Source: an uncultured Anaerolineaceae bacterium
Lineage (GTDB): Bacteria > Chloroflexota > Anaerolineae > Anaerolineales > E44-bin32
NCBI GenBank assembly: GCA_964388955.1
Contig: CAYMCO010000004.1
Location: forward strand, 112,327-176,326
Direction of reading: 5' to 3'
DNA: 64,000 nucleotides
Shown: piece by piece, positions 10,965 through 31,461 of the stretch
Layout: every line of letters begins with the position of its first letter
How positions within the stretch are numbered: position 1 is the stretch's first letter
The notes under the pieces: generated by a model
Seen by the model: only the letters and a program-made list of their open reading frames with translations
The model's database searches: none
What the model was told of the DNA's origin: nothing
Position numbers and translations under genes: made by a program

Positions 10965-12005
10965 ATGAGCGATGAGACACGCATCTTGGGAATTGAGACC
11001 TCCTGCGACGAAACCGCGGCTGCACTGGTGGAGAACGGCCGCCACATCCTGACCGACGAGGTGGCCTCGCAATCCCAGATTCACGCCCAGTACGGTGGCG
11101 TGTTTCCGGAGGTCGCCTCGCGCGTGCACATTGAGGTCATCTTCAGCGTCGTGCAGCGCGTTCTCACCCAATCACATGTAGGCCTGGGCGCGGTGGACGC
11201 CATTGCCGTCACCCGAGGACCGGGCCTGGCCGGTTCGCTCGTTGTGGGTCTAAACATGGCAAAGGGCATGGCGCTGGCCGGGGGCCTTCCGCTCCTGGGA
11301 ATCAACCATCTGGAGGCGCATATCTACTCCGCTTGGCTGGTCGCGGACCAGCCGGAGCCGTCCTTCCCGCTGCTGGCGCTCATCGTGTCCGGCGGCCACA
11401 GCGAATTGGCGCTCATGACCGGTCATTTGGAATATCGCAGGCTGGGCGGCACCCTGGATGACGCCGCCGGGGAGGCTTTCGACAAAGTGGCCCGCATGCT
11501 CGGGCTCGCATATCCTGGCGGCCCAGCCATACAGGAAGCCGCCGAGCTCGGGGATCCGCGGGCCTTCCGATTCCCCCGGGCCCGCCTCCAAGGCACTTGG
11601 GACTTTTCCTTCAGCGGCCTCAAGACGGCCGTTCTGCGAGAAGTGCGCGCCCTTCAGCCGGAAATACAGGCCGGCGTCGACGAACCCAGCCCCGGGCTGC
11701 CGGTCGCCGATCTTGCGGCATCTTTCCAAGCTGCAGTGGTAGATGCCCTTGTGAGCAAGACCATCGCCGCGGCCCAGGAGTACGGCGCCCAGATGATCCT
11801 GGTCGCCGGCGGCGTATCCGCCAACAAGCAGTTGCGGGCCAGCTTCGAGGAACAGGCACAGATCCCGGTTCGCTTCCCCCCATTGAGACTGTGCACCGAC
11901 AACGCTGCGATGATCGCCGCTGTGGGCCATCGACGGTTCCTCGCCGGTCAGCGCGATGCGCTGGACATCGACGTGCTGCCCGCCTGGTCCATCGGGAGCT
12001 TATAG
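10965..12005 (+). CDS. tsaD: tRNA N6-adenosine threonylcarbamoyltransferase
   Basis: 346 aa. ILGIETSCDETAAAL N-terminus, NHLEAHI metal motif, Kae1/TsaD-like throughout. Confidence 0.9.
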   Translation: MSDETRILGIETSCDETAAALVENGRHILTDEVASQSQIHAQYGGVFPEVASRVHIEVIFSVVQRVLTQSHVGLGAVDAIAVTRGPGLAGSLVVGLNMAKGMALAGGLPLLGINHLEAHIYSAWLVADQPEPSFPLLALIVSGGHSELALMTGHLEYRRLGGTLDDAAGEAFDKVARMLGLAYPGGPAIQEAAELGDPRAFRFPRARLQGTWDFSFSGLKTAVLREVRALQPEIQAGVDEPSPGLPVADLAASFQAAVVDALVSKTIAAAQEYGAQMILVAGGVSANKQLRASFEEQAQIPVRFPPLRLCTDNAAMIAAVGHRRFLAGQRDALDIDVLPAWSIGSL

Positions 12006-12074
12006 ATCGCGCGCCCTGTAGGTCTGCGCGACGCGCTTCCGAGAACCAATCGCTTCGAATCCCGGATGCAGGAA

Positions 12075-12542
12075 TCAGCGCCCAACGGTTTCCCCAGTGT
12101 CGGCGTCAGATTCCACCTCGAGGCTGGCCATCGCCAGGTGCCTCATGTGCGCCAACATGGCGCTGAAACCACGCATGCGCTGGAAAGAGAGGGCACGCTC
12201 CAAGCCGGTACACCGGTAGAAATCCACGGACACTTGAAGGATCTCCTGTGGTGACAGACCGCCAAGTCCCGCGCCGAGCAGAGAAGCGAAACCACGCACC
12301 GTGGGCGCGGCCGCAGGGATGTCGAAAAAGAAGCGCAAACCTCCGTCTTCCTTTTCGGCATGGATGCGCACGGGGGTCATACACTCCGGCACCGCCTCCG
12401 TTCGCGCATTCTCCGGCTTCAATCGCGCTGGAATCGCCGGCAGTGAATCGGCATACTGCAATAGCAGTTCCAACTTCTCTCGCCCTTCGCAAAGGGCGAA
12501 ATCCTCACAGATCGCCGCCAGCTTCTCAGGGAGATCCGGCAT
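12075..12542 (-). CDS. sufE: SufE-like sulfur acceptor protein
   Basis: SufE/CsdE-type domain with the conserved Cys context [14 protein letters not shown] at 12542 sits 8 nt after the rhodanese stop; the alternative start is at 12587. Confidence 0.75.
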
Positions 12543-12550
12543 CTGATTCT

Positions 12551-13390
12551 TCACCGCTCGATCGGCGCTCCGACGAGATTGCCCCACTCGGTCCAGGAAC
12601 CATCGTAGTTGCGAACATAGGAGTAGCCAAGCAGGTACTTCAAAGCAAACCAGGTGTGCGAGCTGCGCTCCCCAATGCGGCAGTAGGCGATGACGGGTTC
12701 ATCCTTCGCAAGGCCGTGGCTCTCGTATAACGCCCGCAACGATTCGGCGTCTTTGAAAGTCCCATCCTCATTGGTCGCCTTCGACCAAGGGATATTCGCC
12801 GCGCCCGGGATGTGCCCGCCGCGCATCGCCCCCTCCTGTGGATAGTCCGGCATATGCAGCAGTTCACCCCGATACTCCTGGGGGGACCGCACGTCCACCA
12901 GCGGAAGGCCGCGATCAAGATGGGCGAAGACATCCTGACGGAAGGCCCGGACGCTCAAGTCCGGCTCCATGGCCTGATAGTCCGTCTTTGGATAGCTGGG
13001 AGCTTCCTTCACCATGGGCCTGTCCTCGGCCATCCATTTGGCGCGCCCGCCGTCCATGATGCGCAGATCCCGATGGCCAAAGTACTCGAACACCCAGAGT
13101 GCATAGCAGGCAAACCAGTTGCTCTTATCCCCATAGAAGACCACTGTGGTGCTCTCGGAAATCCCTCTCTCCTGACACAGGGCCTCAAAACTGGACTTTG
13201 AGAGGAAATCCCTGCGGACCGGATGCTGCAGTGTCGTGAACCAATCCACCTTCACGGCGCCGGGGATGTGTCCAGTCTCATACAAGAGCGAATCCTCATC
13301 CGATTCGACAACCCGCACATCGGGATCGTCCAGGTGATTCGCAACCCATTCCATATCCACCAATCGTTCCGGATGTGCATACCCTTCCGA
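12551..13390 (-). CDS. thiosulfate/3-mercaptopyruvate sulfurtransferase (tandem rhodanese)
   Basis: Two rhodanese domains with active-site loop YCRIGERSS. Start taken at [11 protein letters not shown] (13390). Confidence 0.85.
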
Positions 13391-13486
13391 CATCAGAACT
13401 CCCTCCGATCTATGCCTATGCCAGCCCGTGAAACCGATCTGTCGCCTCGTGCAGCCAGTGGCTGCGTCAGAGTACTCTCCAACCAC

Positions 13487-13492
13487 ATTATA
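13487..13492 (-). promoter_or_regulatory. -10-like TATAAT (minus strand) upstream of the rhodanese-sufE pair
   Basis: The plus-strand ATTATA lies in a short AT-rich patch between the radical SAM stop (13602) and the rhodanese ATG (13390). Confidence 0.3.
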
Positions 13493-13601
13493 GATGAATT
13501 TTATGGATATTATCTGTTAATTCACGAGGGAATGCGGGGCTCACCGGCGAGAGGCGCGGGCTCCATTCTGCCGTGCCGCCGCGGCGGCCATCAGTCACCG
13601 C

Positions 13602-14600
13602 TCAAGCGGTCCGGTCTCGATCCGGGAAATAGGCCCCCGCTGCAGCCCAGAAACGGGTCCCCAGGCGATCCACAACCTGTGCACGCCGCTCCTCCTCAAG
13701 TGATTCCAAGGCGGATTCGACCGCCTCTTCATCCCTGTCCCCCAGCATGCGCTTCAACTCCTCCAACCGCATTGGGTGCCGGGTGATCACGCCCAATATC
13801 GCTTCCCGCAGGTCAGTCTCACCGGCAAGATGGATCTCCCCCTCGGCGGGATGCAAAACTGCCGCCACCTCACCCAATATGGCGCGCGCCCGCATCATCC
13901 CTTCCTCCCCCGCGGGCCGCACCCAGGCTTCCGCCGGAGGCCGGTACGGCATCGCCAAATGCACACGGTCTGGCCTGATGCGCTCGATTGCAGACCGCAG
14001 GTCACGCAGAGCGGCATCAGGGTCATTGAGCCCCTGCAGCATCATCACTTCCAGCCAGAGCTTGCCGGCAAAGCTGCGGCGGAAGTCCACCAACCCCCTT
14101 ATGTGCTGATCGAAGGGGAAATGAGGATGCGGCCGATTGATCCGCCGGTACAGTTCACGGGATCCGGCATCCAGCGCGGGCAGGACCGCGTCCGCGGCGC
14201 CGAGCTCGCGGCGGACTTGTGGGTCGGACAACAGCGACCCATTTGTGATCACCGCGATGGGCGCCGACGAGAACCTTCGTGTCTCGCGAATCAAAGCCCC
14301 GAGGTGAACGTGCAGGGTTGTTTCGCCGGAACCGACGAACGTCACCCAGTCAATCTCGTTTGTTGCGGGGGACGCCAAGGTCTCCCTCGATTCATCCATG
14401 ATCTCTTGTGTGGGCACGTACTCCGCCCGCTCACCCACCATTGGACGGCTGCGGCCCAATTGGCAGTATACGCAGTTCCAGTTGCAGGTCTTGAGCGGCA
14501 CAGGGTCGATCCCCAGCGACCTGCCCAGACGCCGGGATTGCACGGGACCGAAGACATGGCGTATGCGTTGGATGCCCATCCAGTTTGGGGCCCTTTCCAC
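13602..14600 (-). CDS. radical SAM protein
   Basis: 332 aa. N-terminal GPVQSRRLGRSLGIDP followed by CNWNCVYC (a CX3CX2C radical SAM cluster motif). Confidence 0.8.
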   Translation of the reverse strand: MERAPNWMGIQRIRHVFGPVQSRRLGRSLGIDPVPLKTCNWNCVYCQLGRSRPMVGERAEYVPTQEIMDESRETLASPATNEIDWVTFVGSGETTLHVHLGALIRETRRFSSAPIAVITNGSLLSDPQVRRELGAADAVLPALDAGSRELYRRINRPHPHFPFDQHIRGLVDFRRSFAGKLWLEVMMLQGLNDPDAALRDLRSAIERIRPDRVHLAMPYRPPAEAWVRPAGEEGMMRARAILGEVAAVLHPAEGEIHLAGETDLREAILGVITRHPMRLEELKRMLGDRDEEAVESALESLEEERRAQVVDRLGTRFWAAAGAYFPDRDRTA

Positions 14601-14819
14601 TCACCGCGTACTGAACGAATGGGAATGTGTCCTCTCAATCCCTGAGACTCGGGAGGCGCACTTGCCAGAGTGACCCAGCCAGAAAGGGGCACCATTCTTT
14701 TCGAATCCCACTGGCGGGAACTTCACCTTCGATGAACCAAAGGTCATTGCCCCCCACAAGCCTCTGCGGCAGCCATCCAGCCGGCAGGGACGGTTCGCTC
14801 CGCGCGGCGATCCTGTGGC

Positions 14820-15023
14820 TCACTTCCTCGTCATGACCGCATCGCATTTCGGGCAACGTCTCTCGTAGCAGGGCTGCCCCACCACGTGCGGTTCCTTGTG
14901 ACCACAACTCGGGCAGACGCATTCACCGTCGGGACCGGCCGCCTTGGGGCCGCCGCCCAGCCCTCTTCCGCCGCCCCTGCCTCGTCCTCCCCTTCCCCGG
15001 CCGCGGCCTGACCATGCATTCAT
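14820..15023 (-). CDS. Arg/Gly-rich zinc-ribbon miniprotein
   Basis: 67 aa. N-terminal GRGRGRGGRGRGGGRG tract followed by CVCPSCG...C...CPKC (6 Cys). Sits inside the co-directional cluster. Confidence 0.6.
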   Translation of the reverse strand: MNAWSGRGRGRGGRGRGGGRGLGGGPKAAGPDGECVCPSCGHKEPHVVGQPCYERRCPKCDAVMTRK

Positions 15024-15084
15024 CTCATTCCTTCCTTCCCTTTAATGGATCCCCTTCCCCGGCCATTTTTTCGCGGAGCCAGCA

Positions 15085-15462
15085 TCAATGCCCCCCGCAG
15101 TCGTGTGACCGGCTTTCCCGGCATGGATCGGCGCCCGAGAGCCGGCCGGCCAGGAAATCCTCCACGGCCTGCCGCACACTCCCGACGGCCCCTGTGCCGA
15201 TCTCCACGCCATAGCCCTGGAAGAATCCGATGGCGCGCCGTCCCATGCCGCCGCTCAGCATGACATCTGCACCTTGCTCCTTGATGAATCCAGGGACCAT
15301 GCCCGGCTGATGGTTCTGGAAATACGGGTTGTCGATCACCGCGACTGATCCCAACTCCGCGCCCTCCACATCCACCAAGACAAAGTAGGGGCAGCGGCCG
15401 AAGTGATGGCTCACCCGGCTGTCCAAGTCCCTGTTCTCCTCACTCGAAATAGCCACACGCAT
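15085..15462 (-). CDS. NifX/NifB-C-terminal-like (FeMo-cofactor-binding fold, orange-protein-like) protein
   Basis: 125 aa. HFGRCPYFVLVD and GADVMLSGGMG motifs of the dinitrogenase FeMo-co-binding family. Carries an extra C-terminal CRESRSHDCGGH tail. Confidence 0.8.
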   Translation of the reverse strand: MRVAISSEENRDLDSRVSHHFGRCPYFVLVDVEGAELGSVAVIDNPYFQNHQPGMVPGFIKEQGADVMLSGGMGRRAIGFFQGYGVEIGTGAVGSVRQAVEDFLAGRLSGADPCRESRSHDCGGH

Positions 15463-15465
15463 TTT

Positions 15466-15774
15466 CTATGCCTCCTGATTCAGAAGTTCCGTGAGTTCCT
15501 TGGCAGCGACATATCCTTCAACCGTGATTCTCTGACCGCTCACCCCTGGAACCTGGGCGACCGCCCCCTTCACCTGCGCGGCCAGATATACCGCGATGGG
15601 GCAGAAGGGCGACGACGGGCGGAACGTGTAGCGCACGAACCCACCTTCCTCGACTTCTAACCCCTCCACCAAACGCATGCGCATGATGTCCACATTGGTC
15701 TCAGGGTCAATCACTTGGCGGAGCGCCTCTTCTATCGAGCCCCGAAGGGCAGTGGCTTCAACCCCCCCCGCCAC
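15466..15774 (-). CDS. DUF59 / FeS-assembly SUF-type (MIP18-like) protein
   Basis: IEEALRQVIDPETNVDIMRMRLV is a typical DUF59 core. GTG at 15774 chosen as start, giving a 17-nt overlap with the upstream ATPase. The track ORF extends to 15870. Confidence 0.7.
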   Translation of the reverse strand: MAGGVEATALRGSIEEALRQVIDPETNVDIMRMRLVEGLEVEEGGFVRYTFRPSSPFCPIAVYLAAQVKGAVAQVPGVSGQRITVEGYVAAKELTELLNQEA

Positions 15775-16669
15775 AAGCCACCCCCAGATACTCCCGCACA
15801 CGGCTCCAGATCTTGGCCATTCCTCGCGCCACTTCCCCGTCTGGCTCGAATTCCGTAACCGGCACTCCATGGATCATGGCATCGGTCGCCCCTTCGTCAT
15901 AGGGGAGTACGCCCACTTGTTCAACACCCCGCGCGCGACATGCCGCTTCGATCGCCCTCGCTCCCTCGGGATGCAGATCCCCCTTGTTAATACACACCCA
16001 TGCCGGCACACCGAAGTGCGCCGTGGTCTCGAGCACGCGCTCCATATCATGCCCGCCGGCCGCGCTCGGCTCCGTCACGATCAATGCCAAGTCCGCCCCG
16101 GAAACAGCGGATATCATCGGGCAGCCGATCCCCGGGGGGCCGTCCACCAGCAGGAGATCGAAATCCGTCTCCATCGCGCGCAGACGCGCTCGCTGTTTGA
16201 CCAACGTCACCAGCTTTCCCGAGTTTTCCTGCGCCGCATATAGGGCAGCATGAAACAGCGGGCCATATGGTGTGACAGATTCGAAATATTGCCCCGCCAC
16301 TTGCTCGCACATTGCGATCGCGTCTTCCGGGCAAGCATATGCGCAGGCCGCGCACCCTTCGCAGGCGATGGGATCCATACTGTACGTCCCGTTCGATTGA
16401 ACCAGGGCCTCGAAGCGGCACACCTCAGCGCAGTCGCCACATCCGGTGCATTTTTGGGTGTCGATGCGGGGGACTTGACCGGCGCGAAACTCCTCCTGCC
16501 TGACCAGCATCGGATCCAGGAGAAGCTCGAGATTCGCCGCATCCACATCCGCGTCCGCCAGCACGACTCTCACCTCGGGCTCGCGACGAGCAGCCAGATG
16601 CGCGAAGGCCGCAGTCAAGCTGGTCTTGCCCGTCCCCCCTTTTCCACTCAAGATCACAATTTGCTTCAC
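15758..16669 (-). CDS. MinD/ParA-type P-loop ATPase with inserted 2x[4Fe-4S] ferredoxin domain
   Basis: 303 aa. Deviant Walker A GKGGTGKTS, with CTGCGDCAEVC and CEGCAACAYACP ferredoxin motifs. Confidence 0.85.
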   Translation of the reverse strand: MKQIVILSGKGGTGKTSLTAAFAHLAARREPEVRVVLADADVDAANLELLLDPMLVRQEEFRAGQVPRIDTQKCTGCGDCAEVCRFEALVQSNGTYSMDPIACEGCAACAYACPEDAIAMCEQVAGQYFESVTPYGPLFHAALYAAQENSGKLVTLVKQRARLRAMETDFDLLLVDGPPGIGCPMISAVSGADLALIVTEPSAAGGHDMERVLETTAHFGVPAWVCINKGDLHPEGARAIEAACRARGVEQVGVLPYDEGATDAMIHGVPVTEFEPDGEVARGMAKIWSRVREYLGVACGGGG

Positions 16670-17586
16670 CCGACGCCTGTCTCCGGCAGGAAACCCCGTG
16701 AATTGCGCCGTGCAACAGCTGTCTCTGAGGTTTCACGCTCGGCGGCCAATTCCACAAGCTGCGCATATAAGTCTCGAAAGCGTGGCCGGTATTCGGGAAA
16801 GGCGGCCGCCAGGGTCACGCCCCTGGCGCAGGCCTCCCCGATTCGCCTCTCCAGCGGGATTCGCATCAGAATCGGGATGCCGCTCTCCCGACAGAAAGCC
16901 TCAACCCCGGCCCGGCCGGATCCATCCCGATTGAGCAGAACACCGGCGGGCAGCTTCATCTCACGCACAACCTTCACCGCCAGGCGCAGGTCATGCAGCC
17001 CAAAGGGGGTGGCCTCCGTAACAAGCAATACAACATCCGCGCCGCGCAGAGTCTCAACAACCGGACAGGAAGTCCCAGGGGGGGCGTCGCGAATCACGAC
17101 TTCTCCCTCCCGTCCCGGAACCCAACGCTTGAGCGCACGGATGACGGGTACCGCCATTGGTTCCCCGATATCCAGAATGCCGCGCCCAAACCTCACGCCG
17201 TACATGGCGTCGCCCACTTGCAGAAGGCCCAGTCTGCGGGGCGATTCCCGAATCGCATGCTGAGGGCAATTCCAAGTGCAACTGCCGCAGCCATGGCATA
17301 GCTGGGGAAAGACGAGCGTCTGTCCGCTCAGCACCACGATGGCGTGATACTGGCAGACTTCCGCACAGCGCCCGCAGGCATCGCAGGCGGCATCGTCGAC
17401 ATCTGGTATCAGCATTTCCACCTGCTTGGATCGAGTGAACTCGGGGCGCAAGAACAGGTGCCCATTAGGCGCCTCGACATCGCAGTCCAGGTACGTTACG
17501 GGGCGGCCACTCAGGGCCAACCCCATGCTGGTGGCGACCGTGGTCTTCCCGGTGCCCCCCTTCCCACTGGCGACCGCAATGATCAT
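16666..17586 (-). CDS. MinD/ParA-type P-loop ATPase with inserted 2x[4Fe-4S] ferredoxin domain (paralogue)
   Basis: 306 aa. GKGGTGKTT, CDACGRCAEVC and CHGCGSCTWNCP motifs. 4-nt overlaps with both neighbours. Confidence 0.85.
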   Translation of the reverse strand: MIIAVASGKGGTGKTTVATSMGLALSGRPVTYLDCDVEAPNGHLFLRPEFTRSKQVEMLIPDVDDAACDACGRCAEVCQYHAIVVLSGQTLVFPQLCHGCGSCTWNCPQHAIRESPRRLGLLQVGDAMYGVRFGRGILDIGEPMAVPVIRALKRWVPGREGEVVIRDAPPGTSCPVVETLRGADVVLLVTEATPFGLHDLRLAVKVVREMKLPAGVLLNRDGSGRAGVEAFCRESGIPILMRIPLERRIGEACARGVTLAAAFPEYRPRFRDLYAQLVELAAERETSETAVARRNSRGFLPETGVG

Positions 17587-17960
17587 GCCCGGCGCCTTCG
17601 GCCGCCGTGATGCGCCGGAACTGTGGCGGCTGAGACCCGCTCGAGTTCTCCGCCCTGCATTTGACGCAGCAGATCCTCAATAGGGTCTTCATCGGCAGCG
17701 TACATCTCGATGCCCGCGGCCTCCAGCCCGGTGAACGCGTTGGGGCCAAAAGCTCCGCTCACAACCGCCTTCACGCCTCGCTCCGCCAACGCCTGCGCGG
17801 CCTGTGGTCCGGCCCCACCGGAAGCGCTCCAGGCTGGATTGACCAGCCGCTCCCACTCGCCGCTTTCCGAATCAAAGACCATGAAGACTGCGCAGCGCCC
17901 GAACCGCAGATCCAGGCGCGAACCGGGACTATCCGACCGGGATGAGAATGCGATCTTCAT
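17583..17960 (-). CDS. NifX/NifB-C-terminal-like (orange-protein-like) protein
   Basis: Start at MKIAFSS (ATG 17960, with a GGAAAGGA Shine-Dalgarno upstream). RFGRCAVFMVFD and GVKAVVSGAFG motifs. C-terminal HHGGRRRRA tail. Confidence 0.8.
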   Translation of the reverse strand: MKIAFSSRSDSPGSRLDLRFGRCAVFMVFDSESGEWERLVNPAWSASGGAGPQAAQALAERGVKAVVSGAFGPNAFTGLEAAGIEMYAADEDPIEDLLRQMQGGELERVSAATVPAHHGGRRRRA

Positions 17961-18011
17961 GTCTATCCTTTCCACACCCTCGAGAGGTGCCCCTTCGACG
18001 TCCAACCGCCG

Positions 18012-18812
18012 CTACGCGGCCCGCTGCAAGGTGATGAGCTTCACTCCAGCATCGTGAACTTGACGGAAATTGCCGCCTTGCCGGATCGCCCGCAGAACAG
18101 GTTCGATTTTCTCCACAACGGCACCGGAAAGCAGGTCCACACCATGGTCGAACAGAACAGGGCTCAGGGGAGTGCTCGGACCCAGAAGCATAACCGTCGC
18201 CTCGGGCGGGCAGAGCGCGAGCAATCCCTCCAGGGTGTGATTCGCCAGCGTCATGCTGGTGATAGCCACCAGGTTGCATTTGGGCAACACACGCGGCGCT
18301 GCTTCGGCGGGCAGATCGCCCGGCTGGGGATCGAGATCGAGCACATAGAAGTCTTGCAGCCTTGCACGCAGCCGCGGCACGAAGGGAAAATGCCCAATGA
18401 GAGCGACCGGCCCATCCTGCCCGTGCTCCAGGATCACTTTCTCAGCGTTGATCTCCCTCCATTCCTGGGGAGGGGGTGGAGGCAGCAAGGCATTGATGGC
18501 GGCCACGCCCACGCTGGCCAGCGTCTCCCGGTCGCGCTCTCGAGCAAGCTCAGCCAGTCTTCGCGCTCCGAGCTGTTCCAGACCTCCGGCCTGCGGCACA
18601 CGCGGCGGGCCGCCGTGCCTGTGGCCGCCCGCGAGGGTTGACGCCAGCCCACAGCGGGGGCCGGAAGGCGTTTCAACCACCACGGCGGTCCAGTTCAAGC
18701 CGACGGTCACTTCCAGCACCCCCGCATCCTCGACCCTGGTCAGCAGATCATCGATCACCGCCACAATCTCAACCTCCATGCATATCCATTTTCCAGCGGA
18801 TGGATGGCTCAC
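18012..18812 (-). CDS. DUF4213/DUF364 (putative metal-chelation, Rossmann-like) protein
   Basis: 266 aa. VGLNWTAVVV, GVAAINALL, IGHFPF and LLGPSTPLSPVLF blocks match my memory of DUF364 proteins. ATGA overlap with the upstream miniprotein. Confidence 0.7.
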   Translation of the reverse strand: MSHPSAGKWICMEVEIVAVIDDLLTRVEDAGVLEVTVGLNWTAVVVETPSGPRCGLASTLAGGHRHGGPPRVPQAGGLEQLGARRLAELARERDRETLASVGVAAINALLPPPPPQEWREINAEKVILEHGQDGPVALIGHFPFVPRLRARLQDFYVLDLDPQPGDLPAEAAPRVLPKCNLVAITSMTLANHTLEGLLALCPPEATVMLLGPSTPLSPVLFDHGVDLLSGAVVEKIEPVLRAIRQGGNFRQVHDAGVKLITLQRAA

Positions 18813-19060
18813 CGACCTCCGCGCCCGGGCCGCCCACCGCCGCCAGCGCTCCTGCCGCGCTTGCGGCTCAATCGGCGGGCTCCAGCACGCCCCCCTGCCT
18901 CGACCCAGCGTCGGCCGCGGCCGCCCCGGCCTCTCTCTACTGCTTCCCGGTGCGCGTTTCGACTCTCACATTCGGGGCATGCCAGCTCAGCCCCCGCCCC
19001 TCCCTGACCATGCGGCAATTGCCATATATGGCTGCAGTCCTGGCATTTGAATGTCCGCAT
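18809..19060 (-). CDS. zinc-ribbon miniprotein with Arg/Gly-rich C-terminal tail
   Basis: 83 aa. CQDC...CPEC zinc-ribbon followed by ERGRGGRGRR...GGGGRPGRGGR. Confidence 0.55.
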   Translation of the reverse strand: MRTFKCQDCSHIWQLPHGQGGAGAELACPECESRNAHREAVERGRGGRGRRWVEAGGRAGARRLSRKRGRSAGGGGRPGRGGR

Positions 19061-19105
19061 TCTCGGGGCTCCTATCTTGCCTGCCTGGGCATCGCCGTAA
19101 TCAAC

Positions 19106-19504
19106 TCAACCGCCGCCGTTGCCCCTCCGCTGAGCTTCATAGGCCTCCAGCAGCCGATCCACCTCCGTTCGCACCCTCATCAGATCATCGGCCCATGCCG
19201 CAAGCTGCGTCTCCCCTTCCTCCGTGATGGAATAGACTTTCCGCGGCGGTCCCTGACTGTCCACATCCTGCCGCGACCTCACCCAGCCCGCATGCTCCAT
19301 TTCTCGCAGCATCCGGTAGAGCAGGCTCGGGTCCAGCCGCTCGGGGTCAATGCCGAATCGCTCAATCTCCCCTAACAGCGCGTATCCATGCGCCTCCCCC
19401 TCCAACAGCAGCAACAGCAGGCAGGGCTGCAGGAACTGACGCACCCGCCTTCGTCTGCGCCGGCCGTGCTTCCGCCCCCCTCGCCAACCACGCTCTCCTC
19501 TCAT
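19106..19504 (-). CDS. PadR-family transcriptional regulator with Arg-rich N-terminal extension
   Basis: 132 aa. Winged-helix core PCLLLLLLEGEAHGYALLGEI...LYRMLREMEHAGWV, preceded by MRGERGWRGGRKHGRRRRRRVRQF. Confidence 0.8.
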   Translation of the reverse strand: MRGERGWRGGRKHGRRRRRRVRQFLQPCLLLLLLEGEAHGYALLGEIERFGIDPERLDPSLLYRMLREMEHAGWVRSRQDVDSQGPPRKVYSITEEGETQLAAWADDLMRVRTEVDRLLEAYEAQRRGNGGG

Positions 19505-19537
19505 ACATTCCCTCCCCTTTATGAATCTAGTCCACTA

Positions 19538-19579
19538 ATGATATTTGGTCAATAGTATGATAGTCAATACTTTCATGAT
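19538..19579. promoter_or_regulatory. AT-rich divergent control region with phased short repeats
   Basis: ATGAT occurs at 19538, 19557 and 19575 (19- and 18-bp spacing). GTCAATA occurs at 19548 and 19563. The region lies between the padR start and the SCO gene. Confidence 0.35.
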
Positions 19580-19738
19580 TTTCGTCATTCTGCCAGAATG
19601 GGCTCGCTCGAAATTCACTGCCTTTCCGAGCCGGTGGGCCACTTGCGCTGCAACGCCCCCTCCCCAAAGGAGGGTGCGCGCTTGCCCAGTCCGGCAGGGG
19701 AACCGACGCGCAGCCTGCGTGGTAGAATTTCCAGCGCA

Positions 19739-20353
19739 ATGCCACGTACGGAATCTCACAAGGCCGCCCGTGCTTTCTCGCTGACGCTTGTGATAATCAG
19801 CTTGATCGCCGCCGCCTGCGCCGGAGGCGCGTACGCCTGGCACGGCAGCCCATATGCTGACACCTCGCCTGCCCCCGATTTCGAGCTCACCGATACAGAG
19901 GGGGAGCCCTTCCGGTTGAGCGCCCAGCAAGGCAAAGCTGTGCTGCTCTTTTTCGGCTACACCTCGTGCCCGGATATTTGCCCCGCCACTGTGGGCGAGA
20001 TGCGCTCGGTGTTTGACCAGATGGGAGCGGACGCGTCGAAGGCCATCTTTGCCTTCATCACCGTGGACCCTGAAAGGGACTCGGCCGAGGCCCTGCGGGA
20101 TTACCTGGACAGATTCAACCCCAATTTCGTCGGCCTTTGGGGTGACCCAGGGCGCCTAGCCACCGCCGAGGGCGCGTATGGCGTATTCGCTCAGGCGGAC
20201 GATCACCAACCGGGCGAACCCTATGAAGTGACACACACCGCCAGGGTTTTCCTGATCGACCCCGAAGGGCTGCTGCGCACCAATTACCCGGTCGACACCG
20301 ATCCGCAGGACATCCTTGCCGATCTGCAGTACGTGACCAAGCGCGCGCCATGA
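19739..20353 (+). CDS. SCO1/SenC-family copper chaperone (lipoprotein-like)
   Basis: Thioredoxin fold with FFGYTSCPDICP (CxxxC copper site). Signal sequence ends in IAAAC. Start at MPRTES (19739). Confidence 0.85.
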   Translation: MPRTESHKAARAFSLTLVIISLIAAACAGGAYAWHGSPYADTSPAPDFELTDTEGEPFRLSAQQGKAVLLFFGYTSCPDICPATVGEMRSVFDQMGADASKAIFAFITVDPERDSAEALRDYLDRFNPNFVGLWGDPGRLATAEGAYGVFAQADDHQPGEPYEVTHTARVFLIDPEGLLRTNYPVDTDPQDILADLQYVTKRAP

Positions 20354-20553
20354 AACGCCGCCGCTGTTCCATCGAAGCCCTGGCAGCCGTGCTCGCATTA
20401 ACCGCCTGCAGCCGGACCCGGATCGGGATCGAAGTTCCGGACGCATGGGCCCGGCCGGCGTCCGCCGGCGCCAACAGCGCTCTCCGTATCCATACACTTC
20501 TCTTCCAGCAGGCCGGCCCAATCACCATCCAGGTGCCGTTTGAGGACCGATGA
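20350..20553 (+). CDS. PCuAC (DUF461)-like lipoprotein remnant lacking the copper-ligand core
   Basis: 67 aa. LTAC lipobox. The N-terminal PCuAC block DAWARPASAGANSAL joins directly to a C-terminal-type block LLFQQAGPITIQVPFE. ATGA overlap with the SCO gene. Confidence 0.45.
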   Translation: MKRRRCSIEALAAVLALTACSRTRIGIEVPDAWARPASAGANSALRIHTLLFQQAGPITIQVPFEDR

Positions 20554-20590
20554 CCCCTCCTCTACCGCGCTGCAGCCAGACGAAGGCGAA

Positions 20591-22042
20591 ATGAATACTC
20601 AGCCACGGCTCACTGTCTCGCATACGGCATCAGTTTACCGGCCGCGGCAAATCCGGGACCTTCTCCATCTTCCCCTCATGGGGCGGCTATTGCGCTGGCG
20701 GTGGGGCCGCCTGGTCTTTCAGTCCATCCTCATGGCGGTCGCCTTGCTGATGGTCTACGACGGATTCACGGGCCCACAGATGGCGGCGGACAACACCGCC
20801 ACCCTGTTCGCCTGGGTGCACTACCGGGGTTTCATCATCCTGGCCCTGCTGCTGGTGGGCAACCTGTTCTGCTTCGCCTGCCCGTTTACGCTGCCGCGCA
20901 CGCTGGCCATGCGGCTCAGCGGCGCGGGCCAGCGCTTTCCCCGGTTCCTGCGCAATAAATGGATCGCCATCGGGTCGCTATTCCTCATCTTCTGGCTCTA
21001 CGAATGGCTCGACCTCTGGGCCAGCCCGTGGCTCACGGCCTGGCTCATCGTGGCCTACTTCGTGGCCGCCTTTGCCCTGGAGTCGCTCTTTGCCGAATCT
21101 CCCTTCTGCAAGTATGTCTGCCCACTGGGTGCCTTCAATTTCGTGCACAGCCGGATCTCCCCTTTGCAGATCACGGCCCGGGATCCGGCAGTGTGCCGTG
21201 ACTGCGAGGGCAAGGAATGCGTGAACGGAACCACCCAGGTCCTGGGCTGCGGCACCGAGCTCTTCGTGCCCACCCTGCGCTCAAACATGGATTGCGTGTT
21301 GTGCCTGGACTGCGCCCGGGCCTGCCCCTATGACAACGTGGCGCTGCAAGTGCGCCGGCCTCTGGAGGAGCTGGCCTCCGACCGTTCGGCGAAGCACTGG
21401 GGAGGCATCCTGCTGACGACTTCGCTGGTCTTCATGGGCCTGATGAACGCCTTTGGAATGGTCAAACCAGTGCGCTCCCTGCAGTCCTGGCTTGGAGAGC
21501 TCGGCCTGCGCTGGGAGGGTGGGCAGCTACTATTGCTGTTTGGCATCGGCGGGCTGGTGCTGCCTGCGGCGGCCACCCTCGGAGCCGCCTGGCTCAGCGG
21601 CCGGTTGGCCGGACCCGAGAGGCGGGAGGCGGGCAGAGAATACGCGGCCCGATACGCCTCTGCCTTTATCCCTATGGGATTTGGCGTCTGGCTGGCGCAT
21701 TACGGCTTCCACCTCGCCATCAGCGGGCTGGCTGTCGTGCCGGCCCTGCAATCCTTCTTCCTACGGCACGGCTCGCTGTTATTGGGGGGCAAGGCAAACT
21801 GGAACCTCAGCTATCTGCTCCCGGCGGAGTGGATCTTTCCTCTCCAGGTCCTCGCGGTGCTCGCCGGGTTCCTGGTCTCACTTGTCGTGCTGACCAGAAG
21901 TGCCTTGGAGTCTTCCAGCGAGCCCATTAACGCCTTTCTCGAGCTGCTCCCTTGGGCGGCCCTGCTCTTCCTGATCACAGTGGCCGCCCTGGCGGTTTTC
22001 AACCTGCCGATGGAAATGCGCGGCATGATGATGGCGACATGA
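20591..22042 (+). CDS. membrane-bound polyferredoxin (CcoG/NapH/FesM-like)
   Basis: Multi-TM protein with Cys motifs CFACP, CKYVCPLG, CRDCEGKEC and CVLCLDCARACP. ATG at 20591 chosen; a TTG at 20540 is possible. Confidence 0.75.
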   Translation: MNTQPRLTVSHTASVYRPRQIRDLLHLPLMGRLLRWRWGRLVFQSILMAVALLMVYDGFTGPQMAADNTATLFAWVHYRGFIILALLLVGNLFCFACPFTLPRTLAMRLSGAGQRFPRFLRNKWIAIGSLFLIFWLYEWLDLWASPWLTAWLIVAYFVAAFALESLFAESPFCKYVCPLGAFNFVHSRISPLQITARDPAVCRDCEGKECVNGTTQVLGCGTELFVPTLRSNMDCVLCLDCARACPYDNVALQVRRPLEELASDRSAKHWGGILLTTSLVFMGLMNAFGMVKPVRSLQSWLGELGLRWEGGQLLLLFGIGGLVLPAAATLGAAWLSGRLAGPERREAGREYAARYASAFIPMGFGVWLAHYGFHLAISGLAVVPALQSFFLRHGSLLLGGKANWNLSYLLPAEWIFPLQVLAVLAGFLVSLVVLTRSALESSSEPINAFLELLPWAALLFLITVAALAVFNLPMEMRGMMMAT

Positions 22043-22602
22043 GAACCCTCCGCTTGGCTTCGGGCCTCGTGTGGGCCGCATTGTTCCTCTCCATCGCCCA
22101 GCCCACGGCCGCTTCCGGGCCGGGCACGGGCGGCCGGCGCATCCAACTGGACAACGAACCGGCAGGCCCTTTCCGGTTGCGCGTCGTCACGTCTCCCACC
22201 CCGCCATCGGTCGAGAACCTGTATCTGGAGGTCAAGGTGCTCGACGGCGCCTCGGGAAACACGGTCACCGACGCTCAGGTGCTCACCTGGGCCCATCCAG
22301 CGCAGGGCGATGCACCCAGAATTGAAGCGCAGGCCAACCACGACATCGCCCCCATCCCCACGGAATATGCCGCCCACTTGCCGGTCCCAGAGGCGGGCAT
22401 GTGGCGGATCCATGTGCAGGTCACCGGAGTACAGGGCAGCGGCGAAGTATCTTTCCTGCAGCGGGTGAACAACCGGACATCTCTGGGCTGGGTCATCGCC
22501 ATCGGCGTGCCACTCGGGGGACTGAGCCTGCTGGCAGTCTTCTTTCTCTGGCTGCAGCGCAGCCAGGGCGGGTCGCGCGTGGGTGCCCGGCCCGATTCCT
22601 GA
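22039..22602 (+). CDS. secreted beta-rich protein with C-terminal TM anchor (FixH/YtkA-like, weak)
   Basis: 187 aa from MRTLRLASGLVW. Signal peptide, a C-terminal TM helix, and an ATGA overlap with the polyferredoxin gene. Confidence 0.5.
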   Translation: MRTLRLASGLVWAALFLSIAQPTAASGPGTGGRRIQLDNEPAGPFRLRVVTSPTPPSVENLYLEVKVLDGASGNTVTDAQVLTWAHPAQGDAPRIEAQANHDIAPIPTEYAAHLPVPEAGMWRIHVQVTGVQGSGEVSFLQRVNNRTSLGWVIAIGVPLGGLSLLAVFFLWLQRSQGGSRVGARPDS

Positions 22603-22792
22603 GGGGCGGACACTCCCACCGCATGCTTCGACCCACCGTGATCGGCCAGGGCGAAAACGGACTTTATCGATCCTCCTATTGGAACGATCCGCGCCCCCTC
22701 AAGAATCTGAAGGGTATGCCGGTCCAGCTTCCAGCGGGGCTTGGCGCGCCGAGGGCTATGGGATTTCCGCGTGAATATGAGGATAAACGCTG

Positions 22793-23704
22793 CTAGAGCA
22801 GGGTATCCAGCACCAATGCGGCGAAGACCAGGGCCAGGTATGTGTTCGAAAAACGATACATCCGCCAGGCCACCCGAGTGTCCTTGTCTCTAAGCACATG
22901 GTATGCCTGGAAGATCAACCCCGCGCCGAGCACCATCGCCGCCACCACGTAGAGCCACTCGCCGAGATGCACGACCGGCAGCAGAAATGTCAAGGCCACC
23001 ACCTGCACACTGTAGAGCAGAATCATCCAGCGCGCTTCCCGATCGCCATATACTACGGGCATCATCGGGATTCCCGCCCGCGCGTAGTCCCGCCGGCGCA
23101 CAAGGGCCATTGCCCAGAAGTGTGGCGGGGTCCAGAAGAATACGACCGCAGCCAGAAACAGGCCCGCGATGGACAGCCCGCCGGTGGCCGCCGCCCAACC
23201 CACCAGCGGCGGAAAGCAGCCTGCCCCACCTCCCACCACGATGTTCTGGGCCGTCGTGGGCTTCAGGATCATGCTGTAGAACACTACATAGTAAAGCACA
23301 CCTGTCAGTGCCAGGAGCGCGCTCAGCAGATTGACAAACAGCGCCAGGGCGGTGACGCCCAGAACACATAGCGAGATCCCAAAGACCAGCGCCTCGCGGC
23401 GGTCCAGCCGTTCGGCTGGCAGCGGCCTTGCCCGCGTCCGACGCATCAAGCGATCCAAATCCCGATCGACATAGTGATTCAAGGCGCTGGCACCCCCCGC
23501 CGTCAGCGCGCCACCAAGCAGAGTCCAGAACACGACCTTGACACCGGGCCACCCGGCCGCTCCGACAACCATGGCAGCCAATGTGGTCAGCAGTTGTAAG
23601 GCCACGATAATCGGCTTCGTCAGTGTAAGGAAATCGCGGAGCCTCGCCATGCGCGGGGGGCTATCGAGGTGTGTTCTCTCCTGGTTTTCCACGTTCAGCG
23701 CCAC
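22793..23704 (-). CDS. ctaB: protohaem IX farnesyltransferase (haem O synthase)
   Basis: 303 aa UbiA-fold protein. NHYVDRDLD and PPHFWA motifs are typical of CtaB/CyoE. Confidence 0.9.
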   Translation of the reverse strand: MALNVENQERTHLDSPPRMARLRDFLTLTKPIIVALQLLTTLAAMVVGAAGWPGVKVVFWTLLGGALTAGGASALNHYVDRDLDRLMRRTRARPLPAERLDRREALVFGISLCVLGVTALALFVNLLSALLALTGVLYYVVFYSMILKPTTAQNIVVGGGAGCFPPLVGWAAATGGLSIAGLFLAAVVFFWTPPHFWAMALVRRRDYARAGIPMMPVVYGDREARWMILLYSVQVVALTFLLPVVHLGEWLYVVAAMVLGAGLIFQAYHVLRDKDTRVAWRMYRFSNTYLALVFAALVLDTLL

Positions 23705-23767
23705 TGGCCGTTATCCTCCTGGGCCCTTGTCCGCGTGTCAGAGGCCTCGCCCGCGCCCCTTCGGTCC

Positions 23768-24058: not shown

Positions 24059-24060
24059 AT

Positions 24061-24666: not shown

Positions 24667-24682
24667 CGGCCTGCTCCCTCCC

Positions 24683-26311: not shown

Positions 26312-26347
26312 CCCATCACTCCCAATTCGATTTCGACCCGGGTCTCA

Positions 26348-27370: not shown

Positions 27371-27514
27371 TTGGCCGTCTCCTCCCCCAAGTTGAGTCCG
27401 CAGCCGACCGCAGCGGCTGCGCGCGATCCTCCCCACCAATTGGAAATGTCCTGCTGACCAACCCGCATGATTCTACCATCTCCACCCATATCTATCCATT
27501 TATTATTGTTCAGA

Positions 27515-28937: not shown

Positions 28938-29018
28938 TCATCGCCTCCGATTGCCGCGGCCCCCTGCGGGCCACCGAGCCATCCGCCCGGCGCACGTCAA
29001 GGTCCCGGATCCAGCCGC

Positions 29019-29852: not shown

Positions 29853-29855
29853 GGC

Positions 29856-31445: not shown

Positions 31446-31461
31446 TCCTTCTCTCCTCGGT

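Follow-up and report, generated by a model that had tools for sequence, protein, structure and literature searches.

The ten genes that run from a PadR regulator to a radical SAM enzyme on one strand of the window (the whole stretch of 64,000 nucleotides analyzed here) are a Chloroflexi-style variant of the widespread orange protein complex (ORP)-type loci, and not a one-off new system. The core of the locus, consisting of two NifX-fold proteins and two paralogous MinD-type ATPases with 2x[4Fe-4S] inserts, is of the ORP type, and neighbourhoods of this type are widespread among Bacteria and Archaea of anaerobic or facultative habit. On balance, the ten genes seem to form a conserved unit, an Anaerolineae version of the ORP-type locus, with a role in assembling or transferring an Fe-S-based cluster.

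The ORF listing places all ten genes on the minus strand, and their coordinates bear out both the co-directional arrangement and the overlaps reported in the first-pass annotation, which amount to 4 nt at 18812/18809, 17586/17583 and 16669/16666 and to 17 nt at 15774/15758. The protein families assigned at that stage also hold after a Pfam profile search, apart from a weak match in the case of the first zinc ribbon and the lack of any significant Pfam match in that of the second miniprotein. For the first NifX-like protein the most probable start is 17960 (125 aa), matching the gene call in a close relative, the longest ORF beginning at 18005; for the radical SAM enzyme it is 14579 (325 aa; P0121), within a longer ORF from 14600. 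Since gaps of ~240 nt and 61 nt occur ahead of the radical SAM gene and the second miniprotein gene, respectively, internal promoters are possible within the cluster. The latter is not a self-contained assembly line, because no Mrp/NBP35 carrier, IscU-like scaffold or cysteine desulfurase is present inside the ten genes.

Features of the ten-gene cluster and its surroundings (positions in the window)
Feature	Position	Strand	Evidence
PadR-family regulator, first gene of the cluster	19106..19504	-	Pfam PadR 2e-15
Zinc-ribbon miniprotein, CxxC...CxxC, GR-rich C-terminal tail	18809..19060	-	Zn_ribbon_8 1.6e-4, below cutoff
DUF4213+DUF364 protein, enolase-N-like and Rossmann-like fold	18012..18812	-	Pfam DUF4213 5.6e-14, DUF364 1.9e-38
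NifX-like protein 1 (PF02579)	17583..17960	-	Nitro_FeMo-Co 4.4e-20
MinD/Mrp-class P-loop ATPase 1, inserted 2x[4Fe-4S] ferredoxin domain	16666..17586	-	Pfam ParA/CbiA and Fer4
MinD/Mrp-class P-loop ATPase 2, inserted 2x[4Fe-4S] domain	15758..16669	-	Pfam ParA/CbiA and Fer4
DUF59 / FeS_assembly_P protein, conserved Cys-Pro motif SSPFCPIA	15466..15774	-	Pfam 2.3e-15
NifX-like protein 2, Cys/His C-terminal tail (PCRESRSHDCGGH)	15085..15462	-	Nitro_FeMo-Co 9.2e-19
Second miniprotein, 67 aa	14820..15023	-	GR-rich N-terminus, then CxCPxCGHx3Hx3GxPCx4CPxC
Radical SAM enzyme, COG0731-like	13602..14579	-	Pfam Radical_SAM 2e-13
Rhodanese, two-domain sulfurtransferase	12551..13393	-	Family via syntenic L001 gene, PF00581
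SufE-like sulfur acceptor, paired with the rhodanese	12075..12542	-	Family via syntenic L001 gene, PF02657
SCO1, COX1/COX2, UbiA	19598-27439		
Cytochromes c, cytochrome b, Rieske	28158-32106		
Cytochrome bd with CydDC-like ABC pair	32638-38716		
Molybdopterin/NrfD/cytochrome c complex, ACIII/Psr-like	53339-59951		

The ORP-type core was found in at least 546 species-representative genomes belonging to many bacterial and archaeal phyla. Its conservation was assessed in 80 species-level loci from many phyla, in which ATPase 1 is followed by ATPase 2 in 78 cases and accompanied by a NifX1-type protein in 69 and a NifX2-type protein in 56; counts were also made in 39 large ATPase-anchored loci. 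The locus had been put forward as an expanded and undescribed system, an idea which is not supported in view of the recurrence of the radical SAM, DUF364, DUF59 and both miniprotein families beside the ATPase pair in many phyla, and of the gene order from the zinc ribbon to the radical SAM enzyme, which is identical in the Anaerolineae genome GCA_011174825.1 (L169), at about 60% identity (52-70%). At the start of the L169 contig, PadR is present only as a C-terminal fragment. Statistically, the accessory genes and the core are linked whichever of the two is taken as the anchor: the radical SAM gene, for example, is present in 14 of the 39 ATPase-anchored loci, and the converse linkage is seen in 14/35 radical SAM-anchored loci. 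Of the related neighbourhoods, 36 have Mrp-type carriers, among them true MrpORP fusions (the MrpORP equivalog scores 557 bits, its cutoff being 450), 21 have NifU_N/IscU-like genes, 10 have Fur and 4 have FeoB.

PadR and DUF59 are the marks of the Chloroflexota flavour. The window PadR has a Gly/Arg-rich N-terminal extension beginning with MRGERGWRGGRKHGRRRRRR, and related Chloroflexota loci likewise begin with PadR genes whose N-termini are similarly GR-rich. The ATG is preceded, at a distance of 6 nt, by the ribosome-binding site GGAGG, and a sigma-70-like promoter (10/12 positions matching) was detected at 19567-19538; the ten-gene unit is probably autoregulated by PadR. DUF59 occurs in half of the Chloroflexota loci (13/26) and is rare in other phyla, its overall frequency being 9/39 in the ATPase-anchored loci. 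The window copy scores only 43.5 bits with the NCBIfam SUF_assoc model, the cutoff of which is 143.

The two ATPases are paralogues showing 28% identity, the first of which is Orp3/Orp4-like. The motif SGKGGTGKT, the eight ferredoxin cysteines, Cys174 of DxPPGxxCP and Cys232 are invariant in the alignment, and the Walker A motif, the eight ferredoxin cysteines and the switch-II cysteine are invariant in both paralogues. The AF2 model of ATPase 1 (pLDDT 90) has the MinD fold, and its nearest structures are FleN, MinD, the ATPase-type, Ni-inserting HypB, Cfd1, ApbC and NifH/BchL. The C-terminal tail of this protein, consisting of ~20 residues, was modelled with low confidence.

The NifX1-type gene lies immediately upstream of the first ATPase gene in 36 of the 39 large loci. 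Its product in the window ends in a basic tail, HHGGRRRRA, and GR-rich tails are frequent among its homologues. The Cys/His tail attributed at first pass to the second NifX-like protein is directly readable in the translation (GADPCRESRSHDCGGH), and 48 of the 64 NifX2-type homologues have cysteine in this tail. NifX-like 2 matches the structures of PH0822 and TM1816 at ~1e-27 and the D. gigas orange protein (2wfb) at 1e-8, and aligns to positions 266-365 of MrpORP, its C-terminal domain, at 5.8e-18; it is a free-standing counterpart of this domain. The suggestion that the core is ORP-like is upheld by the last two of these matches.

The DUF4213+DUF364 protein matches PDB 3l5o (Dhaf4260) at 2.2e-20, and DUF364 genes occur in 10 of the 39 large loci; the contexts of DUF364 homologues differ, one lying in a full ORP-type locus, one in a NifX+MBL neighbourhood and one in an unrelated setting. 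All cysteines of the radical SAM enzyme belong to one CxxxCxxC cluster motif, and the protein carries a C-terminal winged-helix domain; in the AF2 model (pLDDT 82), residues 256-312 are arranged helix-helix-helix-strand-strand. It reached the cutoff of no NCBIfam subfamily and matched no PDB sequence, and the Foldseek matches are those of generic radical SAM proteins (TM about 0.4-0.5, 12-20% identity), which do not indicate a substrate. The zinc-ribbon miniprotein is 70% identical to its L169 counterpart over 44 aligned residues and is also conserved in L001 and L006; a Zn_ribbon_8 family is represented in 27 related loci, mostly with a Cys-rich tail, which the window copy does not have. The second miniprotein belongs to a family conserved in 28 related loci, most members of which show at the N-terminus the motif MPRGDGTGP, common to DUF5320; the miniprotein is also present in L169, and in L001 it is kept, although the gene was not called.

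Based on the position of the residues in the sequence, the two ATPases may form an ATP-dependent heterodimer resembling SIMIBI metallochaperone and NifH-type dimers, in which a cluster or metal bridging the interface between the subunits might be held by the switch-II Cys174. The 2x[4Fe-4S] insert of each subunit might supply or relay electrons, and the dimer would assemble or reduce an Fe-S-based cluster or exchange it with the two NifX-fold carriers, the Cys/His tail of NifX2 possibly acting as a ligand. DUF59 may be an Fe-S maturation adaptor that takes the place of the DUF59 domain found in carriers of the Mrp/ApbC type, and the radical SAM protein and DUF364, the fold of which is known to bind SAM derivatives and to cyclise them, might perform SAM-dependent chemistry on the cofactor or on one of the small GR-rich Cys proteins.

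These ten genes might also constitute a redox-stress or low-potential module for Fe-S repair or protection, switched on in the anoxic or reducing state of a facultative aerobe, an explanation to which we attach a small but real likelihood. Expression of the orp genes occurs only at low redox potential, the D. vulgaris Hildenborough operons being on only when it is very low, via an Fe-S-sensing regulator (PMC8359166). The window host combines O2 reductases with O2-sensitive locus machinery, PadR-family regulators are typically stress-responsive (PMC2954201), and rubrerythrin/ferritin and peroxiredoxin-like genes are present in some related neighbourhoods. However, a repair system would not usually include conserved enzymes dependent on SAM and a number of dedicated carriers, and this explanation mostly overlaps the main one, differing from it solely in the physiological role.

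It is unlikely that the system handles a Mo/W sulfide heterometal cluster (such as the Mo-Cu-S cluster of the D. gigas orange protein, thiomolybdate or a Mo/W cofactor intermediate) rather than plain Fe-S, with DUF364 as a Mo/W chelator and the radical SAM enzyme catalysing a step akin to that of MoaA or a W-maturase. Proteins of the NifX fold bind FeMo-co, a Mo-Cu-S cluster is present in ORP (PMC6345978), to which the 2wfb match of NifX2 corresponds, DUF364 genes adjoin molybdate, tungstate and vanadium transporters (PMC2954201), and one DUF364 gene in a modABC operon is cofit with nifH (bioRxiv 10.1101/2024.03.05.583561). Among 83 ORP-type neighbourhoods, however, Mo/W transporter or Moco genes are not enriched, the enriched genes (Fur, FeoB, NifU_N and Mrp) being iron-related instead; in addition, the radical SAM enzyme scores only about 25 bits with MoaA and the tungsten-cofactor maturase, far below the cutoffs of 284-380 bits, and does not have the cysteines for the second cluster which MoaA requires.

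That the radical SAM enzyme with its winged helix is a maturase of a small GR-rich or Cys-rich protein (the miniprotein, the zinc ribbon or one of DUF5320 type), onto which the ATPase/NifX set only loads clusters, is quite unlikely. Its top structural match is the pyruvate formate-lyase activating enzyme with its peptide substrate (3cb8, 5.8e-8), but this match is not better than those with TYW1, NifB, viperin and MoaA; the combination of a single-cluster radical SAM protein with an additional winged-helix domain would suit a maturase, but no SPASM or RRE-type domain is present. Small conserved MPxxDGTGP/GR-rich proteins are abundant in the loci (60 motif matches versus 0 expected), but show no preferential co-occurrence with the enzyme, the miniprotein being present in 6/21 loci with radical SAM and 12/35 without it. 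Lastly, a role of the MinD-like ATPases in cell division or positioning, the first idea for the Desulfovibrio ORP system, with the metal clusters only as redox sensors, is very improbable: MinD, FleN and FlhG are among the nearest structures, and morphological defects upon loss of orp expression and the location of MrpORP at the cell pole have been described (PMC8359166, PMC6345978), but neither MinC/MinE nor division genes are present in the neighbourhoods, the partners that recur there are carriers of metal clusters and scaffold proteins for Fe-S, and the cited authors themselves term the role unclear (PMC8359166).

The preferred reading, that an Fe-S-based cluster is assembled or transferred, retains the assembly and trafficking theme of the first-pass annotation, which fits the families; what is not supported of the dedicated pathway for an unusual metal-sulfur cofactor proposed there is the singular nature of the system, the supply of sulfur by rhodanese and SufE and the link with respiration. 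The rhodanese and SufE genes were found in none of the 80 diverse loci, lie beside the locus only in the same-genus relatives L001 and L002, and are absent from L169, where a Mrp/ParA gene follows the radical SAM gene. Since an AT-rich promoter-like island with TATAAT is also present upstream of the rhodanese gene (about 13490-13530), this pair lies outside the system and is a separate neighbouring unit. The four respiratory complexes, including the O2 reductases, do exist as annotated, but their adjacency to the locus is restricted to same-genus relatives and thus carries no functional signal.

Several known families share features with the locus. The window DUF364 protein belongs to the same two-domain family as Dhaf4260 and the methyl-azetidinecarboxylate synthase Orf5; an enzyme of the DUF364 family cyclises methyl-SAM (PMC12930334). 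Co-occurrence of radical SAM and DUF364 has also been noted in Orf5-type clusters, but Orf5 is partnered, in a natural-product cluster of Streptomyces, by a radical SAM methylase that depends on B12, whereas the partner in the window is a small single-cluster enzyme in a metal-cluster context. Both NifX-like proteins score above the Pfam threshold of the NifX/NafY/NifB C-terminal family (PF02579; TM1816, PH0822, MTH1175), but no nif genes were detected among the window ORFs scanned for families, and the Cys/His tail of NifX2 resembles the MrpORP domain, the bound cluster of which is 3Fe-4S and not FeMo-co.

The ATPases have the deviant Walker A motif GKGGxGK[ST] and the fold class of the Mrp/NBP35/ApbC/Cfd1 carriers, Cfd1 and ApbC being among the top structural matches, and both have a DUF59 partner, which in many Mrp proteins (e.g., in L011) is the N-terminal domain. 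Unlike these carriers, the window ATPases have one invariant switch-II cysteine in place of the CxxC and a ferredoxin domain inserted after switch I, and they score far below the ApbC and MrpORP cutoffs. The dimeric SIMIBI ATPase fold is shared with the NifH/BchL/CfbC reductases, and the switch-II cysteine, seven residues past the Walker B Asp, occupies what we take to be the position of the NifH ligand Cys132, although the second NifH ligand has no equivalent at the matching position. In contrast to these reductases, the electron carrier is the inserted ferredoxin domain, a heterodimer of paralogues rather than a homodimer is predicted, and nothing like the catalytic partners NifDK or BchNB is encoded in the window.

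The closest parallel is the ORP system of D. vulgaris Hildenborough (Orp3, Orp4, Orp5, Orp8 and Orp9/MrpORP, with OrpR), in which Orp3, Orp4 and Orp8 co-purify as an Fe-S-containing complex to which MrpORP passes clusters (PMC6345978). Paired MinD ATPases with two [4Fe-4S] motifs each, small NifX/Di-Nase-fold proteins homologous to the orange protein, small Cys-containing miniproteins and tight clustering are common to both. Two defining Desulfovibrio features, the MrpORP fusion and sigma-54/OrpR control, are absent from the window, which contains no Mrp gene and has PadR in place of sigma-54/OrpR/IHF; both true MrpORP and sigma-54 activators are carried, as in D. vulgaris, by loci retrieved with the window ATPase. 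Instead of two divergent operons, the window has one co-directional cluster, its host has O2 reductase genes, and DUF59, DUF364 and the radical SAM enzyme are added to the shared core.

The ten minus-strand ORFs described in the first-pass annotation were all found again in an ORF check of the window, together with the 4-nt and 17-nt overlaps between them, and two start sites were corrected (those of the NifX1 and radical SAM genes). The profile-HMM check proposed there upheld the family assignments in Pfam, weakly in the case of the zinc ribbon, the only exception being the second miniprotein; despite their weak or absent Pfam matches, both of these small proteins are conserved in the related loci.

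Genes of the cluster and other features of the window
Feature	Coordinates	Strand	Match or remark
PadR	19106-19504	minus	Pfam, 2e-15
Zinc-ribbon protein	18809-19060	minus	weak Zn_ribbon_8 match
DUF4213+DUF364 protein		minus	Pfam, 5.6e-14 and 1.9e-38
NifX1	start probably 17960	minus	Nitro_FeMo-Co (PF02579), 4.4e-20
ATPase 1		minus	CbiA/ParA P-loop; Fer4 matches restricted to residues about 55-120
ATPase 2		minus	CbiA/ParA P-loop; Fer4 matches restricted to residues about 55-120
DUF59		minus	FeS_assembly_P, 2.3e-15
NifX2		minus	Nitro_FeMo-Co (PF02579), 9.2e-19
Second miniprotein	14820-15023	minus	no significant Pfam match
Non-coding gap, about 240 nt	14580-14819		between miniprotein and radical SAM genes
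Radical SAM	start probably 14579	minus	Radical_SAM, 2e-13
AT-rich island	13490-13530		TATAAT; upstream of rhodanese
Rhodanese, then SufE	3' of cluster		precomputed Pfam matches on syntenic genes of L001, a same-genus relative
PCuAC/LpqE-like gene	20350-20553		in-frame internal deletion
Two conserved proteins	20540-22602		no Pfam match
HerA/DUF87-like and PLD-like pair	42736-46406	minus	weak HerA/DUF87 match
231-aa ORF	60059-60754		collagen-like triple-helix repeat, 1.9e-6

The nearest named homologs occur in MAGs of the Anaerolineales, the Anaerolineae, and other Chloroflexota. Three metagenome contigs from same-genus relatives (L001-L003, about 86% identity) show full synteny with the window, extending over the COX operon, SCO1, rhodanese, SufE, TsaD, and SelA. 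The first-pass annotation had called for a survey of neighborhood conservation, and the order was found to recur in L169, a contig of GCA_011174825.1 placed in the Anaerolineae by the NCBI name ("Anaerolineae bacterium") of a homolog of its DUF364 protein; the core recurs across many phyla. L169 and the window share the order zinc ribbon, DUF364, NifX1, ATPase 1, ATPase 2, DUF59, NifX2, miniprotein, and radical SAM, at 52-70% amino-acid identity (about 60%); PadR is present in L169 only as a fragment at the contig end, and a Mrp/ParA gene, not rhodanese, comes after the radical SAM gene. Further Chloroflexota loci (L004-L006) have kept PadR, NifX, both ATPases, DUF59, and NifX. A radical SAM gene lies close by in these loci, which additionally carry Mrp/ParA, CooT, DUF8180, or CGGC genes. 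Since the gene order is conserved, a chance juxtaposition of unrelated genes was rejected. The non-coding gap before the radical SAM gene (12767-13005 in L001) is conserved only within the genus; it matched nothing in Rfam and shows neither a clear promoter nor a clear terminator, and no riboswitch was found in an Rfam scan of positions 11900-19800.

The four respiratory complexes previously placed around the locus, including two O2 reductases, were confirmed: around the locus lie genes for SCO1, a heme-copper oxidase, a complex of Rieske protein and cytochromes b and c, FeoB, cytochrome bd plus a CydDC-like pair, and a molybdopterin/NrfD/cytochrome c complex. Homologs of COX1, SCO1, rhodanese, and SufE adjoin the locus in L001-L003 only. 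Since this adjacency is not conserved (0/39 large related loci in the case of rhodanese and SufE), the earlier proposal that these two proteins supply persulfide sulfur was dropped, and neither rhodanese-SufE as the sulfur donor nor the respiratory operons as functional partners of the system were retained; nothing in the neighborhood comparison connected the locus with sulfur mobilization or with the respiratory complexes. The AT-rich island before rhodanese, in a region of 62% GC, contrasts with the tight coupling of the genes within the cluster, and its sequence suggests that rhodanese-SufE may have an independent promoter; the island was missed by the promoter consensus scan, its spacer being at odds with the consensus.

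The PCuAC/LpqE-like copper chaperone gene, which lies between SCO1 and a CcoG-like membrane protein, encodes a product of 67 aa, versus 142 aa in L001 (86% identity), residues 48-123 being missing. One of the two conserved proteins encoded between SCO1 and the oxidase operon is a membrane-bound protein of 500 aa with several CxxC/CxxxCP motifs, which appears to resemble the CcoG/NapH-type polyferredoxins. Farther along, an 831-aa HerA/DUF87-like protein adjoins a two-domain protein of the PLD-like nuclease family, and the two could constitute a defence- or DNA-processing-type pair.

The distribution of the system was studied by scanning one genome per GTDB species with the ATPase alignment as the query: at least 600 stretches matched, and at least 546 of these were confirmed. 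The best 80 of these belong to Chloroflexota, Planctomycetota, Desulfobacterota, Omnitrophota, Acidobacteriota, Bipolaricaulota, Bathyarchaeia, methanogens, and others, most of them stemming from lineages labelled anaerobes. The co-occurrence of the window proteins was determined by tblastn in those 39 of the 80 loci that span at least 16 kb, and recurrent neighbors were identified by de novo clustering of all the ORFs in the related loci, the representatives being annotated by Pfam and NCBIfam.

Occurrence of gene families in the related loci
Family	tblastn, loci of at least 16 kb	De novo clustering, related loci
ATPase 2	39/39	
NifX1-type	36/39	
NifX2-type	30/39	
Radical SAM	14/39	
DUF364	10/39	
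DUF59	9/39	
CGGC	8/39	
Miniprotein	8/39 (22/80 of the best 80)	
PadR	5/39	
Rhodanese	0/39	
SufE	0/39	
Mrp-type carriers, including true MrpORP fusions		36
DUF5320		36
Miniprotein family		28
Zn_ribbon_8 with Cys-rich tails		27
MBL-fold		24
NifU_N		21
ARMT1/DUF89		16
DUF134		14
Sigma-54 activators		12
Fur		10
Methyltransferase		9
TrmO-like		7
DUF1847		5

When the loci were compared by taxon, PadR (10/26 Chloroflexota loci) and DUF59 (13/26) proved to be Chloroflexota traits, DUF134 was seen both in Archaea and in Chloroflexota, and DUF1847 was confined to Archaea. As for the radical SAM gene, 13/26 Chloroflexota, 4/6 archaeal, 3/7 planctomycete, and 0/7 Desulfobacterota loci carry it. No functional account of COG1149/COG1433, DUF5320, DUF134, DUF1847, or CGGC was found in the literature.

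The radical SAM enzyme has only three cysteine residues, all of them in the CxxxCxxC motif, and no auxiliary-cluster cysteines. Its model (pLDDT 82) consists of a partial barrel and a C-terminal winged helix; no PDB sequence match was obtained, and Foldseek returned PFL-AE, TYW1, DesII, NifB, RlmN, viperin, and MoaA, all scoring about equally weakly. Because these structural matches are generic and all the named NCBIfam subfamilies scored at most 31.5 bits, versus cutoffs of 130-425, its assignment as a TYW1, MoaA, NifB, viperin, PFL-AE, or W-cofactor maturase was rejected. The family includes 984 clusters at 50% identity with E values of at most 1e-30. In a reverse test, metagenomes were scanned with a diverse radical SAM alignment as the anchor, which gave 35 loci of at least 9 kb. 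In 14 of them, a gene for an ATPase, NifX, or MrpORP lies no more than 8 kb away, and other accessory families are found in several more; radical SAM proteins of this family are therefore a genuine and frequent component. Across Bacteria and Archaea, this COG0731-like enzyme and the ATPase/NifX core are linked whichever of the two is taken as the anchor.

The DUF364 protein shows the expected DUF4213 N-terminal domain and a Rossmann-like DUF364 domain (PF04016), with a match to 3l5o (2.2e-20). Among four homolog contexts, there was one complete ORP-type locus, one group consisting of MBL, NifX, rubrerythrin, and DUF364, one unrelated context, and one contig end that was uninformative; DUF364 is an accessory with a looser association. 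Its family has been tied by genome context to the transport of Mo, W, V, and Fe (PMC2954201), a DUF364 gene within a modABC operon shows cofitness with nifH (bioRxiv 10.1101/2024.03.05.583561), and the first biochemical activity reported for a DUF364 enzyme was methyl-SAM cyclisation (PMC12930334). No Mo/W transporters were apparent among the low-frequency and recurrent neighbor families when the N-terminal sequences of the cluster representatives were read, and the neighbor spectrum (Mrp, NifU_N, DUF59, Fur, and FeoB) points to iron-sulfur rather than Mo/W chemistry. That SAM-using enzymes (radical SAM, DUF364, methyltransferase, and TrmO-like) recur suggests an extra organic or radical step. 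In further Anaerolineae loci (L004 10987-12356, L006 11039-14112), a Mrp/ParA ATPase, the nickel-binding CooT, and DUF8180 flank the radical SAM gene, an arrangement that for some variants hints at a nickel or CODH connection. Only two related loci contain CooT/DUF8180, and the window contains neither these genes nor the Mrp/ParA one.

The two ATPases, which share 28% identity, have in common a deviant Walker A motif (SGKGGTGKT), a switch I DxD, the eight ferredoxin cysteines, and Cys232, all of which are invariant in the alignment. So is a single cysteine, Cys174, located in DxPPGxxCP seven residues past the Walker B Asp. The NifH cluster ligand Cys132 likewise stands seven residues after Asp125; since the spacing is the same, the ATPases might possibly have an inter-subunit metal site at this cysteine. 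The confident model of ATPase 1 (pLDDT 90) shows a MinD fold with an insertion, its nearest folds being FleN/MinD, ATPase-type HypB, Cfd1, ApbC, NifH, and BchL; the ferredoxin insertion was not present in any of the solved structures compared. In the NifX1-type proteins, the C-terminal tail is GR-rich or of the EGHW type. That of the NifX2-type ones usually contains a cysteine (48/64 cases) and ends in CDH, as in MrpORP, or in PCRESxEHxH in the Chloroflexota. The family Cys-Pro motif is retained in DUF59.

An N-terminal MPxxDGTGP motif followed by Gly/Arg repeats is common to the miniprotein family, DUF5320, and one Fur-family regulator of the ORP-type loci (e.g., L027 354-584, L026 2922-3317, and L042 133-603). 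It gave 60 matches in loci L004-L086 versus 0 in shuffled ORFs. Degenerate GR-rich forms occur at PadR N-termini, where the motif regex missed them, and in NifX1-type tails; in the window, they are carried by PadR, the zinc ribbon, and the miniprotein. It is conceivable, but in our opinion rather unlikely, that a widespread Nif-independent pathway driven by ATP and SAM builds or decorates a complex Fe-S-based cofactor on NifX-like carriers, with the MPxxDGTGP/GR-rich peptide as a docking or sensing tag. This pathway would involve the ferredoxin-insert ATPase pair, the NifX-fold carriers, the single-cluster radical SAM enzyme, DUF364, a class I methyltransferase, and a TrmO-like protein; the cofactor would be ligand-bearing or heterometallic, and the tag would be borne by the miniproteins, DUF5320, and some regulators (clearly in one Fur-family protein, as degenerate GR-rich N-termini in the PadR regulators). 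Its logic would be analogous to that of NifB/NifEN or HydE/F/G, and it would persist in O2-respiring Chloroflexota.

Few gene clusters of unknown function are as widespread in anaerobes as the ORP-type loci. To these, the window adds a probably PadR-controlled Chloroflexota architecture which is kept at about 60% identity, lacks MrpORP, and always includes DUF59, as well as the two-way tie between the COG0731-like radical SAM enzyme and the ATPase/NifX core. Together with the O2-reductase host, these features shift the hypotheses toward Fe-based rather than Mo/W chemistry and toward the involvement of SAM, and they provide definite targets for biochemical work.

The Mrp/NBP35/ApbC Fe-S carriers share the deviant Walker A motif with the two ATPases, but their cluster-bridging CxxC is absent, since outside the ferredoxin insert the ATPases have only the single invariant residues Cys174 and Cys232; their ApbC score is 24.8 bits versus a cutoff of 348. 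The NifX/NafY nitrogenase cofactor carriers share the PF02579 domain, but the nif context (nifB, nifEN, and nifHDK) is absent: no nif genes were detected among the window ORFs scanned for families or among the recurrent neighbor families. Nor is the SUF system (SufBCD, SufS, SufE/SufU, and SufT-type DUF59) matched, only SufE and rhodanese adjoining the cluster in a non-conserved manner, and the DUF59 scores are low (SUF_assoc, 43.5 bits versus 143; SufT, 22.8 versus 203).

The ORP complex of D. vulgaris Hildenborough consists of Orp3, Orp4, Orp5, Orp8, and Orp9; Fe-S chromophores accompany Orp3-Orp4-Orp8 on co-purification, both domains of MrpORP bind clusters, which it passes on to the complex, and a role in cell division has been tentatively proposed (PMC6345978). 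Expression of the orp genes is restricted to low redox potential via the Fe-S sensor OrpR (PMC8359166). As the first-pass annotation stated, the pairing of NifX-fold proteins with ferredoxin-inserted MinD ATPases is the ORP-type core, and both features are present here: the two paralogous ATPases, each with two [4Fe-4S] ferredoxin motifs, are like Orp3/Orp4, and the NifX/Di-Nase-fold proteins are like Orp8, with a match to the D. gigas ORP 2wfb (1e-8). The small Cys-rich, [2Fe-2S]-binding Orp5 could be compared by description with the two small CxxC proteins, the Zn_ribbon_8 copy in the window being without the Cys-rich tail found in most related loci. MrpORP, in which a Mrp/NBP35 P-loop domain is fused to a Di-Nase domain, is absent: the best NCBIfam MrpORP score is 65 bits versus a cutoff of 450, covering only the C-terminal domain, and no Mrp-like gene was found in the whole 64-kb window, whereas the related locus L058 carries a true equivalog (557 bits). 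In Desulfovibrio, control is exerted by sigma-54 promoters and the enhancer-binding protein OrpR, whereas here the cluster is headed by PadR with a sigma-70-like promoter match upstream; no sigma-54 activator homolog was found in the window, and among the related loci compared by taxon such activators occur in Planctomycetota and Desulfobacterota only. The restriction to anaerobes does not apply either, since the window has genes for both a heme-copper and a cytochrome bd oxidase, and the term "anaerobe-specific" is therefore not absolute. The locus had been put forward as an undescribed system; it does not amount to a new kind of system, the ORP-type kind being already known, and is a member of this neighborhood family in a Chloroflexota-specific architecture, from which MrpORP and sigma-54 control, two features of the prototype in Desulfovibrio, are missing and in which conserved accessories are added.
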